Part shown: one piece after another, positions 164-6,443 of the stretch
Layout of the letters: each line of letters opens with the position of its first letter
Position numbering within the stretch: the first letter of the stretch is position 1
Position numbers and translations under genes: made by a program
Notes under the pieces: model-generated
Told to the model about the DNA's origin: nothing
Databases searched by the model: none
The model's input: only the letters and a program-made list of their open reading frames with translations
IMG/VR virus record: IMGVR_UViG_2698536392_000020
Reading direction: 5' to 3' (one strand)
DNA: 6,443 nt
DNA from: a virus
Lineage: Duplodnaviria > Heunggongvirae > Uroviricota > Caudoviricetes

Positions 164-317
164 TTTTATATTGGCGAGGTGACGGGAGTTAAGTAGAATT
201 GCTGCGGGTGCTTGAGGCTATCTGCCTCAGGCATGAACACCAAAGGCAGATAGAGAAAAGCCCCAGTTAACATTACGCGTCCTGCAAGACGTTTAACATT
301 AATCTGAGGCTCAATCT

Positions 318-530
318 ATGAACGGCAAATCTAGGTTAGCCTCTTACGTGCCGAAAGGCAAGGAGAAGCAGGCTATGAAGCAGCAAAAGGCGATGTTAAT
401 CGCCCTGATCGTCATCTGTTTAACCGTCATAATGACGGCACTGGTAACGAGGAAAGACCTCTGCGAGGTACGAATCCGAACCGGCCAGACGGAGGTCGCT
501 GTCTTCACAGCTTACGAACCTGAGGAGTAA
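318..530 (+). CDS. mok-like in-frame N-terminal extension of hok (70 aa)
   Basis: ATG at 318 with a weak SD (TGAGG 305-309); the ORF shares frame and stop with hok. Chromosomal hok loci are annotated with such a Mok extension (as I recall, MokC is 69 aa against HokC 50 aa). Confidence 0.45.
   Translation: MNGKSRLASYVPKGKEKQAMKQQKAMLIALIVICLTVIMTALVTRKDLCEVRIRTGQTEVAVFTAYEPEE
375..530 (+). CDS. hokD: Hok/Gef-family type I toxin (51 aa), closest to HokD (RelF)
   Basis: Translation MKQQKAMLIALIVICLTVIMTALVTRKDLCEVRIRTGQTEVAVFTAYEPEE matches the Hok family (transmembrane helix followed by the conserved periplasmic Cys-containing tail). From memory it differs from K-12 HokD at about one residue. 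SD AGGAGA at 361-366, 8 nt before the ATG. Confidence 0.85.
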   Translation: MKQQKAMLIALIVICLTVIMTALVTRKDLCEVRIRTGQTEVAVFTAYEPEE

Positions 531-977: not shown

Positions 978-2027
978 GTGCGGGTATTACTTCGACCTGT
1001 TCTGGTACCGGAACTCGGTCTGGTTATCGTTAAGCCAGGCCGTGAATCCATGCGGGTATTTCATGGCGGCAGGGTGCTGGTGGAGTCTGAACCGAAAAGC
1101 ATGCGTAATCTGCCGTCCGGGGTCGTTCCTGCCGTTCGCCAGCCGCTGGCGGAAGATAAATCATTACTGCCATTTTTCAGCAATGAGCGTGTGATTCGTG
1201 CTGCTGGTGGCGCTGGTGCACTGTCTGACTGGTTATTACGTCACGTTAAATCCTGCCAGTGGCCTCATGGTGATTACCACCACAGCGAAACCGTCATACA
1301 TCGTTACGGTACCGGCGCGATGGTGTTGTGCTGGCACTGCGACAACCAGCTGCGCGACCAGACATCCGAATCACTTGAGCAACTTGCTCAACAAAACCTG
1401 TCAGCATGGATGATTGACGTCATCCGCCACGCAATGAATGGCACACAGGAACGGGAATTATCGCTGGCTGAATTATCCTGGTGGGCAGTCTGCAATCAGG
1501 TGGTGGACGCATTACCTGAGGCAGTATCGCGTCGTTCTCTGGGATTACCGGCGGAAAAAATCCGCTCCGTATACCGTGAAAGCGACATCATACCGGGAGA
1601 ACAGACCGCCACCAGCATACTGAAGCAGCGCACAAAAAATATTGCGCTACCGCCTCACACCCACCAGCAACAGAACCCACCACAGGAAAAGACGGTGGTC
1701 AGCATTGCCGTTGATCCGGAGTCTCCGGAATCCTTCATGAAACGACCTAAACGTCGCCGCTGGGTAAATGAGAAATACACACGCTGGGTAAAGACACAGC
1801 CGTGTGCGTGTTGTGGTAAGCCAGCGGACGATCCTCATCATCTGATTGGTCATGGTCAGGGTGGAATGGGAACAAAATCCCACGATATTTTCACGCTACC
1901 GCTGTGTCGGGAGCATCACAACGAGCTTCATGTGGATCCGCTGGCGTTCGAAGAAAAGCATGGTTCCCAGGTTGATTTAATTTTTCGTTTTCTTGATCAC
2001 GCTTTTGCAACCGGCGTGCTCGGGTAA
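978..2027 (+). CDS. DUF968-family prophage protein (YdfU-like), with a C-terminal Cys/His cluster
   Basis: 349-aa ORF starting at GTG 978 with SD GGAGG at 969-973; an alternative ATG start at 1050 (MRVFHGG...). C-terminus contains CACCGKPADDPHHLIGHG...LCREHHNELH, an HNH/zinc-binding-like pattern. Gene order matches ydfU in Qin-like prophages. Confidence 0.75.
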   Translation: MRVLLRPVLVPELGLVIVKPGRESMRVFHGGRVLVESEPKSMRNLPSGVVPAVRQPLAEDKSLLPFFSNERVIRAAGGAGALSDWLLRHVKSCQWPHGDYHHSETVIHRYGTGAMVLCWHCDNQLRDQTSESLEQLAQQNLSAWMIDVIRHAMNGTQERELSLAELSWWAVCNQVVDALPEAVSRRSLGLPAEKIRSVYRESDIIPGEQTATSILKQRTKNIALPPHTHQQQNPPQEKTVVSIAVDPESPESFMKRPKRRRWVNEKYTRWVKTQPCACCGKPADDPHHLIGHGQGGMGTKSHDIFTLPLCREHHNELHVDPLAFEEKHGSQVDLIFRFLDHAFATGVLG

Positions 2028-2039
2028 AAGAGGTTACTG

Positions 2040-2411
2040 ATGCGTATAGAGTTTGTTTTGCCTTACCCGCCGACGGTGAACACCTACTGGCGACGTCGTG
2101 GCAGCACATATTTTGTATCAAAAGCCGGTGAGCGTTATCGCCGGGCTGTGGCGCTTATTGTTCGCCAGCAGCGGCTGAAATTAAGCCTGTCCGGACGGCT
2201 GGCAATAAAAATTATTGCAGAACCACCGGATAAGCGCCGCCGTGACCTGGACAACATTCTGAAAGCACCGCTGGATGCGCTGACGCATGCGGAAGTGCTC
2301 ATTGATGACGAGCAGTTTGATGAAATCAATATTGTGCGCGGTCAGCCTGTGCCAGGTGGACGGCTGGGCGTGAAGATTTACGAAATCAGAGGTGGTAACG
2401 ATGGCGCGTGA
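2040..2411 (+). CDS. rusA: RusA-family Holliday junction resolvase (crossover junction endodeoxyribonuclease)
   Basis: 123 aa; SD AAAGAGG at 2027-2033. Conserved RusA acidic motifs ([13 protein letters not shown] and IDDEQ) and overall similarity to K-12 RusA as remembered. Typical nin-region position immediately upstream of Q. Confidence 0.85.
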
Positions 2412-2772
2412 TATCCAGATGGTTCTTGAGCGATGGGGGGCATGGGCAGCAAATAATCATGAAGATGTAACATGGCCCTCGATAGCTGCTGGTTTTAAAG
2501 GATTAATCCCGACTAAAGTGAAATCACGTCCTCAGTGTTCTTATGATGACGCCATGATAATTTGTGGTTGTATGGCACGATTAAACAAGAATAATCAGTA
2601 TTTGCACGATTTGTTGGTGGATTATTACGTAGGTGGAATGACATTTATGGCTCTTGCACGTAAGCATAGATGTTCTGATGGGCTTATTGGTAAAAGGCTT
2701 TATAAAGCGGAAGGTATTATTGAAGGAATGCTTATGGCTCTGAATGTCCGGTTAGATATGGATATGCGGTAG
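2401..2772 (+). CDS. Q: Late-gene antiterminator Q, small Phage_antitermQ type (QuuD-like)
   Basis: About 123 aa from ATG 2401 ([25 protein letters not shown]...), resembling DLP12 QuuD as remembered. The ATG overlaps the rusA stop by 11 nt, which suggests translational coupling. The ORF-track start at GTG 2392 is a less likely alternative. Confidence 0.8.
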
Positions 2773-2894: not shown

Positions 2895-2925
2895 CAATCT
2901 TCATCATTAAATAAAAGGAGTGCTT

Positions 2926-3744
2926 ATGTGGATTGTGTTAGTACTGTCACTGTCAACTCTCAGTTGGCATAAGGTAGTGGCTTTTTCATTGTTGACGGTG
3001 TCTGTTGTCCTGGCTGTGCTTAATGATATTATTGATTGGTCGGTGTTGTTTTTTGTTGCTACAATCGTTTTTTTTATTATTTTGAAGTTCAACTGGAAAT
3101 ATAACGCCTGGGCTAAATCTATATATGAAGTTGGCATAGTTTTATCAGCCATAGCATTATCTTTCCATCTATGGCCAGGGTTTCACAATCCTGTAGTGCT
3201 AAATTCTGTTACTGTTGGCCCTCAAAGCACTCCCTATACAATGTATTTTAATTTTGATAAAGCGCTGGTGCCATTTTTGTTAGTCCTGTGTACATCTTCT
3301 TTGTTTAAAAAAGAAGTAAAATCAGAAGTGTCTTTGTGGAAGTGGGGGGCTCTGTCGCTCTCTGTTCCTCTTATCCTGTTTTTGGCTGTTTTTTTTGGTG
3401 GATTAAAGCCAGAGATTCATTTCCCTGAGTGGTTGCCAGAGTTTATATTGGCTAATTTGTTTTTTGTGTCTCTGGCAGAGGAATCATTATTTAGAGGGTA
3501 TATTCAATCACGGCTATCAGAAGTAACGTCTCCATTGGTTGCATTAATTGTGGCGGCTTTGTTGTTTGGTTTTTTTCACTATTCAGGTGGTGCTTTACTT
3601 GTATTATTTGCCACGTTATCTGGTGTTGTGTATGGATTGTCATGGATGTGGAGTAGGCGTTTGTGGGTTGCCACCCTTTTCCATTTTGGTTTGAATCTGT
3701 GTCACTTGTTATTCTTTACCTATCCATTTTTAAAACATAATTGA
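2926..3744 (+). CDS. CPBP-family (CAAX protease / Abi, PF02517-like) intramembrane metalloprotease
   Basis: Polytopic hydrophobic protein with the three CPBP signature motifs in order: EExxxR (AEESLFRGY), FxxxH (FGFFHYSGG) and HxxxN (FHFGLNL). Strong SD; ATG 2926 preferred over GTG 2920. AT-rich, unlike the flanking phage core. Confidence 0.8.
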   Translation: MWIVLVLSLSTLSWHKVVAFSLLTVSVVLAVLNDIIDWSVLFFVATIVFFIILKFNWKYNAWAKSIYEVGIVLSAIALSFHLWPGFHNPVVLNSVTVGPQSTPYTMYFNFDKALVPFLLVLCTSSLFKKEVKSEVSLWKWGALSLSVPLILFLAVFFGGLKPEIHFPEWLPEFILANLFFVSLAEESLFRGYIQSRLSEVTSPLVALIVAALLFGFFHYSGGALLVLFATLSGVVYGLSWMWSRRLWVATLFHFGLNLCHLLFFTYPFLKHN

Positions 3745-3884: not shown

Positions 3885-3907
3885 CCCCGCCTCTGAGCGG
3901 GTTTTTT
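3885..3907 (+). terminator. Rho-independent terminator
   Basis: Stem CCCGC (3886-3890), loop CTCTGA, stem GCGGG (3897-3901), followed by TTTTTT (3902-3907). Lies about 140 nt downstream of the CPBP stop. Confidence 0.65.
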
Positions 3908-4030
3908 GTGCCCGCAAAGTAGCGCAGTGCGTTAAATGTGCTGGTAGTTATTAATACAGGTCTTTCAGCTTGCTGGCTTTTTCGACAAGAGTTATTGGTG
4001 TGTCACGTTAACCGGAAAGGGTAAAAAGAC

Positions 4031-4270
4031 ATGCTGAAACAGCAGGATATGACAGAAACCGCCAGAGTTGTGTTTGATGAATTAAGCGTCACCGAACCGG
4101 CGACGGTCGGGGAGATTGCGCAGAATACGTACCTTTCACGCGAGCGCTGCCAGTTAATACTGACCCAGCTGGTTATGCGGGTCTGGCAGACTATCAGTTC
4201 GGTTGTTACAGACGCCTTCAGTCCTGAAGGCTTTTTTATTTGTGGTAAATGGGCGGCTGGTGGGTGTTAG
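4031..4270 (+). CDS. Small hypothetical protein (79 aa) with a helix-turn-helix-like segment
   Basis: ORF with a weak SD; the segment TVGEIAQNTYLSRERCQLILTQLV looks HTH-like. Codon composition looks coding. However, a terminator-like hairpin with T-tract (4214-4241) sits inside the last 20 codons, so the true 3' end, or the coding status, is uncertain. Confidence 0.4.
   Translation: MLKQQDMTETARVVFDELSVTEPATVGEIAQNTYLSRERCQLILTQLVMRVWQTISSVVTDAFSPEGFFICGKWAAGGC
4214..4241 (+). terminator. Terminator-like hairpin with T-tract
   Basis: GCCTTCA (4214-4220), loop GTCC, TGAAGGC (4225-4231), followed by TTTTTTATTT (4232-4241). Confidence 0.45.
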
Positions 4271-4298
4271 CGGCACCTGTCAGTCCTTTGCTTATGTG

Positions 4299-4329
4299 TT
4301 GATGATAATTTACCTTTTGGGGCTATAAT
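4299..4329 (+). promoter_or_regulatory. Candidate sigma70 promoter for the AraC-family gene
   Basis: -35 TTGATG (4299-4304), 19-nt spacer (longer than optimal), consensus -10 TATAAT (4324-4329). By eye only. Confidence 0.25.
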
Positions 4330-4364
4330 TGAACTAACCAATTGCTAATGAAAGTAAAATTATA

Positions 4365-5078
4365 ATGGTTGTTGTCTGTTCAGTTATCATGGTTTGCTCC
4401 CCAATTAATATTTTTCTTGAAAAGGATACGTTGTCACTTAAGCCCGGCTCAGTCGTTCTGGCCACCAAATGCATCAGGGCGCTTTTCCTTATGCATTATG
4501 GCAAAGTTAAAATTTTCGATATAAACCATTCCATAGTAAGTCAATATCTGGAAATTCAGCATAAGCTGACAAGAACTCATCTGACTGACGTTCCGCTTTA
4601 TCTGTCACTGGAACCCAACAACCCTGCGTTGGCTGAGGCTTTAATTACCAGCCAGAGATTTTCCGGAGATACCACGGATATGTTTCTTATGATGGCATGC
4701 CTGTCGCTGTTTGAATCAGATGAACGGATATTATTATTTTTAAGTGGATGTTTATCCAGTATAAGTGCCAAAGTCAGGGCGATAATTCAGACAGATATAT
4801 CAGCAAGCTGGACGCTTGGTGCGATTGCGTTACGCCTGCATATGAGTGAGAGTTTGTTAAAGATAAAACTGAAAAATGAAGGGCGCATGTTCAGTCGCTT
4901 GTTGCTGGAAGAGCGGATGCGTGTTGCTGTCAATATGTTATGTTCCCGGCATGGATATGGACAGGCTGTAGCAGAAAAATGCGGTTATTCAAGCTGGTCC
5001 TACTTTATTTCTGTATTTCACCGCTATTATGGCTTCCCGCCAGACAGATATGTATCCAGGCAAGGGCTTGATTATTGA
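4365..5078 (+). CDS. AraC/XylS-family transcriptional regulator of the YdeO/AppY/GadX type
   Basis: 237 aa. The N-terminus MVVVCSVIMVCS resembles the MSLVCSVIFI of YdeO and MDYVCSVVFI of AppY as remembered. The C-terminus has the AraC double-HTH (..MSESLLKIKLKNEGRMFSRLLLEERMRVAVNML...AEKCGYSSWSYFISVFHRYYGFPP). AT-rich. No recognisable SD. Confidence 0.85.
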   Translation: MVVVCSVIMVCSPINIFLEKDTLSLKPGSVVLATKCIRALFLMHYGKVKIFDINHSIVSQYLEIQHKLTRTHLTDVPLYLSLEPNNPALAEALITSQRFSGDTTDMFLMMACLSLFESDERILLFLSGCLSSISAKVRAIIQTDISASWTLGAIALRLHMSESLLKIKLKNEGRMFSRLLLEERMRVAVNMLCSRHGYGQAVAEKCGYSSWSYFISVFHRYYGFPPDRYVSRQGLDY

Positions 5079-5106
5079 TTTTCATCTGATTATTATTTTT
5101 TGACCC

Positions 5107-5178
5107 GGCCCTTTAGCTCAGTGGTGAGAGCGACTCATAATCGCCAGGTCGCTGGTTCAAATCCAGCAAGGGCCACCA
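5107..5178 (+). tRNA. ileZ: tRNA with CAU anticodon (Ile2/ileX-like by sequence), possibly structurally defective
   Basis: Acceptor stem GGCCCTT/AAGGGCC, D-arm GCTC-AGTGGTGA-GAGC, anticodon loop CTCATAA, T-arm GCTGG-TTCAAAT-CCAGC, discriminator A and encoded CCA. Only 14 nt lie between the D-arm and the variable loop instead of the usual 18, so the anticodon stem is shortened to 3-4 bp. Confidence 0.6.
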
Positions 5179-5185
5179 TCACATA

Positions 5186-5262
5186 CCGCCATTAGCTCAT
5201 CAGGAAAGAGCGCCAGCTTTCGAAGCTGGTTGCGCGGAGTTCGGGTCCCCGAAGGCGGTCCA
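5186..5262 (+). tRNA. argN: tRNA-Arg (anticodon UCG)
   Basis: Cloverleaf by eye: acceptor CCGCCAT/AAGGCGG (one A-A mismatch), D-arm GCTC-ATCAGGAAA-GAGC, anticodon arm CCAGC-TTTCGAA-GCTGG, T-arm with TTCGGGT loop and one mismatch, CCA encoded. The deviations make it less certain than the next tRNA. Confidence 0.6.
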
Positions 5263-5275
5263 TTATCTGTATCCT

Positions 5276-5352
5276 GCGTTGTTAGCTCAGCCGGACAGAG
5301 CAATTGCCTTCTAAGCAATCGGTCACTGGTTCGAATCCAGTACAACGCGCCA
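5276..5352 (+). tRNA. argO: tRNA-Arg (anticodon UCU)
   Basis: Clean cloverleaf: acceptor GCGTTGT/ACAACGC, D-arm TAGCTCAGCCGGACAGAGC, anticodon arm ATTGC-CTTCTAA-GCAAT, T-arm ACTGG-TTCGAAT-CCAGT, discriminator G, CCA encoded. Confidence 0.85.
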
Positions 5353-5366
5353 CACTTATTTTCCCT

Positions 5367-5392
5367 GGCTCGCTTTTGCGGGCCTTTTTTTT
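5367..5392 (+). terminator. Rho-independent terminator after the tRNA cluster
   Basis: Stem GGCTCGC (5367-5373), loop TTTT, stem GCGGGCC (5378-5384), followed by eight T (5385-5392). Confidence 0.75.
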
Positions 5393-5619
5393 AAATGTCT
5401 CACAATTCAGGCGGTTGACTGTTGTCTGGTTTGCGGGGAGTTTGTTAAAAGAAACTGGCATGGTGAATCCCCCTGTGCGGAGGGGCAATCAGCGAGTAGG
5501 TATATGGGATAATCGCGGATTCAGGTGCTGGTACTGAATTCACCGGGAGGCACCCAGCACCATGCAATGGCACATAGCGCCACTCTCCAGCCCCTCTCCG
5601 GAGGGGCTTTCTTATGGAC

Positions 5620-5648
5620 AAAAAAAGCCCGCGCAGGGAGACGCGGGC
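5620..5648 (-). terminator. Minus-strand intrinsic terminator-like element
   Basis: On the + strand, seven A (5620-5626) precede an inverted repeat GCCCGCG (5627-5633), 8-nt loop, CGCGGGC (5642-5648). Read on the minus strand this is a GC-rich hairpin followed by U7. Confidence 0.45.
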
Positions 5649-5841
5649 GGCAAGGAATAAACAACAAAACGTGAAGTAATATTTCAGCTGGCGAATAATA
5701 TCCGACAGTAATCACTCTGCGCAATAGCGCGGCCTTTTTCGTATTGCGGGCTGTTGTCTCTCTTCTGCCATTGTCCTGTAACTTCCGGACTTCAGCCCGC
5801 TCCTCATTTTACTCACAATATTATCCCGGCCGGGAGGATTC

Positions 5842-6443
5842 ATGGCATTTAAACACTATGATGTTGTCAGGGCGGCGTCGCCGTCAGACCTTGCGGAAAA
5901 GCTGACACACAAACTGAAAGAGGGCTGGCAGCCATACGGCGGACCGGTTGCCATTACGCCGTACACACTGATGCAGGCGGTGGCTATTGAAGGAGATCCA
6001 CAGGTCGGCCCTTCATCTGAGCCGGACTGGTTCTACGTGGTTGTGCTTGCCGGACAGTCCAACGGCATGGCCTACGGTGAAGGGCTTCCGTTACCGGATT
6101 CTTACGATGCTCCGGATCCGCGCATTAAACAGCTGGCGCGCCGCAGCACGGTAACTCCGGGTGGAGAGAGTTGTACGTATAACGACATCATCCCGGCTGA
6201 CCACTGCCTGCATGATGTGCAGGATATGAGTACGCTGAATCATCCGAAGGCAGACCTGAGCAAAGGGCAGTACGGCTGTGTCGGCCAGGGCTTACATATT
6301 GCCAAAAAACTGCTTCCGTATATCCCGAATAACGCGGGGATCCTGCTGGTACCATGCTGTCGTGGTGGTTCTGCATTCACCCAGGGCGTTGAGGGGACAT
6401 TCAGTGCGGACACTGGGGCCAGCCAGGATTCGGCACGCTGGGG
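5842..6443 (+). CDS. nanS: NanS-p-like sialate 9-O-acetylesterase (N-terminal DUF1737-like region plus SGNH esterase domain), 5' partial; continues past the window end
   Basis: SD GGGAGG at 5832-5837, ATG 5842; the frame is open to the window end (200 codons). Contains GQSNGMAYGEGLPLPD...PRIKQLAR...DVQDM...ILLVPCCRGGSAF, closely resembling E. coli NanS/YjhS as remembered. Occupies the position downstream of the stx site in Stx-phage-like prophages. Confidence 0.85.
   Translation, partial: MAFKHYDVVRAASPSDLAEKLTHKLKEGWQPYGGPVAITPYTLMQAVAIEGDPQVGPSSEPDWFYVVVLAGQSNGMAYGEGLPLPDSYDAPDPRIKQLARRSTVTPGGESCTYNDIIPADHCLHDVQDMSTLNHPKADLSKGQYGCVGQGLHIAKKLLPYIPNNAGILLVPCCRGGSAFTQGVEGTFSADTGASQDSARW

Follow-up and report, generated by a model that had tools for sequence, protein, structure and literature searches.

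The window examined here, a 6,443 bp stretch of viral DNA, contains the late-gene arrangement found around stxAB in Stx-converting phages and has no toxin genes, and it raises the question of what occupies the roughly 450 bp between its argO-like tRNA and its nanS-p homologue. The original prediction took this interval as the place that would hold stxA and stxB, and saw in it an stx-negative relative, a site from which stx was lost, or a vacant site into which stx could be gained.

The anatomy of the window (Table 1) was assembled from the ORF list, a tRNA scan, a Pfam scan and the RefSeq annotation of a 100% identical locus. It bears out a Stx-phage-like late architecture without toxin, with Q, a tRNA cluster followed by its terminator, and a nanS-p homologue all present, and with stxA and stxB absent. 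The claimed order of Q, ileZ-argN-argO-like tRNAs and nanS-p holds as well, although Q does not adjoin the tRNAs but is separated from them by 2.3 kb of cargo (the protease, the TrmB-like ORF and the AraC-type HTH regulator). Regions used for comparison were those of VT1-Sakai (Stx1), 933W and Stx2_EC3283 (both Stx2a), the toxin-free phages PhiR5_1 and phi296, and Nil3, for which the record is partial. A type I toxin-antitoxin locus lies near the left end of the window; its sok RNA scores 111.7 bits in Rfam (gathering score 59), and its 51-aa Hok/Gef peptide matches PF01848 (E 1.8e-23) and is named HokD in the source-genome annotation. Just 3′ of hok there is a weak match to IsrK, a Salmonella prophage sRNA (539-620; 27.1 bits, gathering score 50; E 0.008), which is below threshold and may be due to chance.

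Table 1. Predicted features of the window (coordinates in bp from its first position).
Feature	Coordinates	Strand	Evidence or remark
hok/sok type I toxin-antitoxin locus	206-530	+	sok 206-380; Hok 375-530
DUF968 protein	978-2027	+	ORF list, Pfam, RefSeq annotation of identical locus
RusA	2040-2411	+	ORF list, Pfam, RefSeq annotation of identical locus
Late antiterminator Q (Q933-like)	2392-2772	+	Pfam Phage_antitermQ E 3e-50; 79% identity to 933W Q
CPBP/Rce1-like membrane protease (intramembrane)	2920-3744	+	Pfam and RefSeq annotation
TrmB-like ORF, frameshifted	4031-4270	+	Pfam and RefSeq annotation
AraC-type HTH regulator	4365-5078	+	Pfam and RefSeq annotation
ileZ-like tRNA (CAT)	5107-5178	+	ARAGORN; RefSeq names tRNA-Ile
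argN-like tRNA-Arg (TCG)	5186-5262	+	ARAGORN, Rfam, alignment
argO-like tRNA-Arg (TCT)	5276-5352	+	ARAGORN, Rfam, alignment
Intrinsic terminator ending tRNA cluster	5367-5392	+	7-bp stem, then T8 (terminator scan)
Cargo ("moron") junction, unoccupied here	5390-5396		blastn breakpoints
STnc100-family sRNA (RF02076)	5429-5619	+	cmscan; own 3′ terminator
Candidate convergent small RNA, AsxR/AgvB slot	~5692-5620	-	Terminator scan, fold; 5′ end inferred
Terminator-like hairpin ahead of nanS-p	5717-5741	+	Terminator scan, alignment
nanS-p homologue, 5′ part	5842-6443	+	ATG at 5842; DUF1737 and SASA esterase; extends past window end

The left flank of the gap corresponds closely to that of known Stx2 phages. 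ARAGORN finds three tRNA genes at 5107-5352, as predicted from the letters, and the ileZ/argN/argO-like cluster together with its terminator is 91.9% identical to the 933W cluster. The ileZ-like tRNA is 72 nt rather than 76 nt long, and an alignment with 933W, phi296, Nil3 and a second copy in the same genome shows that the GAGC of a GAGCGAGC repeat is absent at the junction of the D-stem and the anticodon stem. This tRNA scores 58.2 bits in Rfam versus 72.5 bits for the 933W copy, and is probably defective. The terminator that follows the cluster has a folding energy of -13.8 kcal/mol (z = -3.45), and in the 933W record the homologous site, which precedes stx, is likewise marked as a terminator.

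The gap itself (5393-5841) contains only short, overlapping ORFs of 32-77 aa, in agreement with the earlier view that no ORF of meaningful length lies between argO and nanS-p. Nor was any stx-like sequence detected in it: tblastn with Stx1A/B and Stx2A/B and blastn with both stx cassettes gave chance-level matches only across the whole window, and none of these fall within the gap. A stretch of 450 bp free of ORFs is by itself statistically unremarkable; the gap is counted as real because it aligns end to end with the spacer between stxB and nanS-p (mean column identity of 80% in a multiple alignment of seven loci) and because it contains a strong RNA-family match.

It is extremely improbable that the gap encodes one or more small proteins instead of RNAs. 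Several ORFs of 43-77 aa do overlap it, RefSeq and PHANOTATE call hypothetical ORFs there, and ribosome footprints are reported on some of the STnc100 copies of EDL933 (PMC5331693). One 68-aa ORF (5282-5488, minus strand) gives the sole PHROG match, to phrog_27294 (unknown function; E 1.2e-45). However, that ORF runs antisense across the argO tRNA and its terminator, the ORFs overlap one another, start with TTG or GTG and have no Pfam match, RefSeq labels its own call an incomplete pseudogene, and conservation tracks the RNA structure model. The gap was rejected as coding DNA on account of the missing Pfam match and the antisense position of the lone PHROG match; the matching ORF is probably an artefact produced when conserved non-coding DNA is annotated by automatic gene calling, and the phrog_27294 family as a whole may consist of such spurious calls.

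Where the toxin genes would lie can be read from phages that carry them, and here the original prediction does not stand. The 450 bp gap is not the stxAB slot, because Stx phages also have the homologous ~450 bp, located 3′ of stxB. In pairwise blastn, window positions 5104-5393 match, at 91.9%, the tRNA region that immediately precedes stx2A in 933W and Stx2_EC3283, and the match resumes at window position 5396, 1332 bp further on, after stx2B (breakpoints 5393 and 5396). At their left junction these Stx2 phages read GGGCCTTTTTT / ATATCTGCG (the latter beginning ATATCTG), where the window reads GGGCCTTTTTTTTAAATGTC; in phiSTEC1575-Stx2k, homology stops at 5393, where stx2k begins. Because blastn homology breaks at ~5390-5396 in all three phages, the toxin cassette is assigned to a point outside the 450 bp interval. 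Judged by these breakpoints, the stx2AB cassette (~1.33 kb) sits at a single point on the gap's left edge, at the argO terminator's T-run. Direct repeats flanking the stx2 cassette, which might have allowed precise excision, were sought and none were found beyond the terminator T-run.

Cargo other than stx is also found between these flanks. In Escherichia coli MS8320 and several IMG/VR proviruses, the STnc100 module is separated from the argO terminator by a gene of the TerB family, one with DUF3927 and small ORFs; homology to the window has its left edge at 5390-5393 and its right edge at 5388-5389. Strain WR14-2 has a DUF3927 gene at the junction. The region downstream of PR′ has been described as tolerating "moron" insertions, such as stx2AB in Sp5 (Tree et al. 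2014, PMC4104026). In TOE17 and MS8320, two different STnc100 modules lie in tandem between the tRNAs and nanS-p (L009 1325-2708; L010 2365-3442).

The RNA-family match in the gap is to STnc100 (RF02076). In a cmscan of the whole window, repeated on the interval alone, it extends over the full model (1-206) with 130.6 bits (gathering score 47; E 2e-29), and on this covariance-model evidence the plus-strand element at 5429-5619 is a member of the family. It carries the family's 3′ terminator, consisting of a hairpin (5589-5608) and a U-rich tail. STnc100 occurs at the equivalent position in 933W, Stx2_EC3283, VT1-Sakai, PhiR5_1 and phi296, with scores of 143-208 bits and with or without stx; the window copy is a lower-scoring member with a shortened central region, and since the prophage is degraded the element may be decaying. 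Its minimum free energy is ordinary for its composition (z = -1.13), so folding energy is uninformative as support and the family call rests on the covariance model. A sigma-70 consensus scan upstream of the element (5380-5430) found no promoter, and two candidates picked manually (TTGACT at 5415-5420 and CACAAT at 5401-5406) were discarded for want of a properly spaced partner hexamer.

Homologous copies of STnc100 are expressed. EcOnc27, the STnc100 copy of Sp5, is seen at ~235/247 nt on northern blots and by Hfq CRAC (Tree et al. 2014, PMC4104026), and its published probe sequence matches the 933W STnc100 row of the alignment. EDL933 has 11 transcribed STnc100 copies, of which a 191-nt copy (STnc100_4) is northern-positive (PMC5331693). 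STnc100 has been located 75 nt downstream of the stx2 operon (PMC12370729), and among the features that predict HUS in O157:H7 are sequence variants of this sRNA region (PMC12711010). By alignment and family match, the 450 bp gap is a conserved non-coding spacer with a known prophage sRNA, and it is not empty.

A second RNA is predicted on the opposite strand, convergent with STnc100 and abutting its 3′ end (5619 versus 5620). The candidate has a 5′ part of ~30-45 nt that is unstructured and G/U-rich, a terminator hairpin at 5648-5627 (8 bp, 7 of them GC) and a U7 tail at 5626-5620; its fold has z = -3.72. This architecture is as in AsxR, and in the alignment the element falls where 933W has AsxR. 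The characterised partners of this convergent kind, AsxR and AgvB, act as anti-sRNAs against FnrS and GcvB (Tree et al. 2014, PMC4104026), and their type of position and architecture (convergent with STnc100, a short unstructured 5′ part, a hairpin and a U tail) is found here. The Rfam models, with their conserved 3′ region of ~42 nt, are not matched: a 471-nt search with AsxR (RF02703) and AgvB (RF02702) gave nothing at E up to 10, whereas 933W gives AsxR 88.1 bits with the same model, and membership in either family was rejected on this ground. Matches to anti-hemB (22 bits), OmrA-B (20.5 bits), SgrS, the Leu leader and others are far below gathering scores and reflect terminator hairpins only. 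The name EcOnc15 (Sp15) was likewise not adopted, as EcOnc15 maps between Q and stx1A, outside this spacer.

Among 32 copies of the minus-strand element there are 10 variants, and an upstream TTGCGC-18 nt-TATTAT motif is kept in all 32. Variation is concentrated in the spacer of this putative promoter and in the putative seed (GTTTTGTTGTTT versus GTTTCATTGTT), a pattern that is consistent with a real gene and is not proof of one. The 5′ region (GUUUUGUUGUUUAUU) is G/U-rich, unlike the AgvB target mimic CACAACA, and the seed varies to GUUUCAUUGUU in some Stx2a phages; the same allele as in the window is present downstream of stx1 in O157 Sakai and downstream of stx2a in several phages. A tentative reading, held at clearly less than even odds, is that the element is an expressed, Hfq-dependent sRNA representing a third allele class of the anti-sRNA slot, distinct from AsxR, AgvB and EcOnc03, and that its seed would pair with C/A-rich GcvB-type sites in a GcvB-like rather than an anti-GcvB manner.

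A third hairpin, at 5717-5741, is almost invariant in 7/7 aligned loci and folds weakly (z = -1.1); a terminator function is inferred for it. Three plus-strand terminator-like hairpins (5367-5392, 5589-5616 and 5717-5741) are conserved across loci, as would be expected if the gap were a passive insulator, a terminator stack that shields nanS-p and the lysis genes from tRNA and cargo transcription and has no RNA gene of its own. This account of the gap is very improbable, as the full-length STnc100 covariance-model match spans far more than a terminator and the homologous copies are expressed, Hfq-bound RNAs. An insulator role need not compete with an sRNA module; the two are compatible.

The right flank is the nanS-p homologue that had been predicted. 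The first 200 aa of the ORF, which are all that the window contains, match DUF1737 (E 2.8e-16) and share 70% identity with the nanS-p/SASA esterases encoded by 933W (E 9e-108) and VT1-Sakai (E 7e-110); the start codon is at 5842, not 5843. Alleles of nanS-p are found on several prophages per strain (7 to 10 in EDL933 and 5 in an O104:H4 strain), and the prophages bearing them outnumber those bearing stx (review PMC8065619).

Identity to known phages is mosaic across the region. Similarity of both flanks to stx flanks, which the original prediction implied, was found: the left flank is 91.9% identical to 933W and 90.6% to the Stx2k phage, the latter only up to 5393, and the right is 98.4% identical to VT1-Sakai, only from 5536, while Nil3 is 99.8% identical over tRNAs and gap. 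The toxin-free junction of the window recurs in Nil3 (AM051322, from E. coli O157:H7), whose tRNA cluster and gap are 99.8% identical over 5353-5795 and 97.8% over 5104-5795, but in Nil3 Q is followed by tR′ and then directly by the tRNAs, without the CPBP/TrmB/AraC cargo, and the record stops before nanS-p. VT1-Sakai (Sp15) shares 5536-5842, covering the 3′ half of STnc100, the hairpin ahead of nanS-p and the convergent element, whose stem differs at 1 nt; it differs in having stx1AB upstream, no tRNA cluster and a diverged STnc100 5′ half. In phiSTEC1575-Stx2k, the block of TrmB-like ORF, AraC-HTH and three tRNAs (window 3886-5393) lies directly upstream of stx2k, but stx2k follows the junction, the STnc100 copy (7802-7990, 3′ of stx2B) lacks the 5′ part, and nanS-p is absent, its place being taken by an IraM anti-adapter gene on the opposite strand and a holin.

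The prophage of 933W/Sp5 has the same plan as the window, with STnc100 on the late strand and an abutting convergent, terminator-ended RNA between the cargo slot and nanS-p, and with the same tRNAs and terminator upstream. It differs in that stx2AB is present at its junction, its STnc100 scores 207.7 bits, its mid-spacer (window 5487-5716) is not alignable by blastn, and its convergent RNA is AsxR, while neither model, AsxR or AgvB, finds the window element. Convergent Hfq-bound sRNAs between a moron coding sequence and a conserved ORF have been reported for Sp3, 4, 5, 9, 10, 11, 15 and 17 (Tree et al. 2014, PMC4104026), and the layout of cargo slot, convergent sRNA pair and esterase ORF is already known from these O157 prophages. 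The PasD sRNAs of EPEC (Zhu, Shabalina and Storz, 2026 preprint) are a further known system that may be close to it.

The toxin-free arrangement is common. With window positions 5276-5842 as query and at least 80% coverage in one place, a contiguous argO-gap-nanS-p arrangement is present in 1029 of 5426 complete E. coli genomes, including O145, O111 and O104:H4 strains, and 573 records have at least 99% identity. The O145 strain RM12522-C8 is among the near matches, at 99.8%. In a non-random IMG/VR sample, at least 121 STnc100 cores occur among the matches listed. Among these 121, argO is adjacent in 34, at a distance of 186-221 nt (188 in the window), and further off with other DNA between in 38; 28 have no argO or stx within 3.5 kb, 15 are too near a contig end to classify, and six have stx.

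These distributions bear on whether the window belongs to a one-time Stx prophage that has recently lost its toxin cassette by deletion. Homology to stx flanks is seen on both sides, the gap is nearly identical in its right part to the Stx1 phage of O157 Sakai, decay and rearrangement have affected the prophage, and the Pas sRNA preprint names repeated stx loss as one possibility; replacement by homologous recombination through the flanks would moreover be scarless, so that stx could have been lost recently or long ago without a trace. Against this, the junction shows no scar or stx fragment and recurs in identical form in Nil3 (99.8%) and in hundreds of genomes that differ in serotype, and the flanks share no more than 85-92% identity with the Stx2 phages used for comparison. 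A toxin-free relative with a vacant cargo slot is favoured because there is no scar, the junction is common to Nil3 and many unrelated genomes, and flank identity to Stx2 phages is at this level; recent loss of stxAB is unlikely. Of the three readings originally offered for the site, an stx-negative relative with an unoccupied cargo slot is the best fit, and no positive evidence points to recent loss.

The whole window is 100% identical to E. coli 2013C-4830 and 2012C-4227. In 2013C-4830 it lies within a decayed prophage remnant beside ynfG that is interrupted and flanked by IS3 copies; in this identical source locus nanS-p carries a frameshift and IS elements truncate the holin. Because it is a remnant, the window prophage is an implausible recipient for becoming a functional Stx phage. 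The same locus (13081-29521) contains a second, diverged copy (~87%) of the AraC-HTH/tRNA/gap/nanS-p block 10 kb upstream, with IS3 between and flanking the two; both nanS-p genes are pseudogenes, and lysis genes including the holin are truncated.

The best explanation, to which a probability of roughly 0.88 is assigned, is that the window represents the late-region cargo zone of a lambdoid prophage of Stx-phage type, with the toxin slot unoccupied and the gap formed by a non-coding sRNA module. The order would be Q, cargo genes, tRNAs with their terminator, the junction at ~5390-5396, the conserved non-coding module and nanS-p, the module comprising a plus-strand STnc100 sRNA with its terminator, a convergent minus-strand RNA candidate and a further terminator-like hairpin. 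Judging from homologous copies, the STnc100-type RNA would in a lysogen be transcribed independently, bind Hfq and base-pair with host mRNAs. By the same analogy the convergent RNA would act on other RNAs, its characterised alleles AsxR and AgvB being sponges of core sRNAs, and the terminator stack would silence nanS-p and the lysis genes until induction, when Q-modified polymerase would read through. The mosaic identity suggests that cargo cassettes may be exchanged at the junction, most plausibly by recombination between conserved flanks, with the tRNAs and terminator serving on the left and the conserved sRNA core on the right.

The window is an ordinary, already described toxin-free Stx-phage relative and carries little weight as a discovery; this version is present in about one in five complete E. 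coli genomes. Its value lies in annotation, where the gap is better named an STnc100-family sRNA locus and the cargo junction proper is placed at a single point, at the argO terminator. A junction defined this precisely is useful for PCR or long-read assays that tell occupied from unoccupied slots, and for tracing prophage backbones that could gain stx by recombination.
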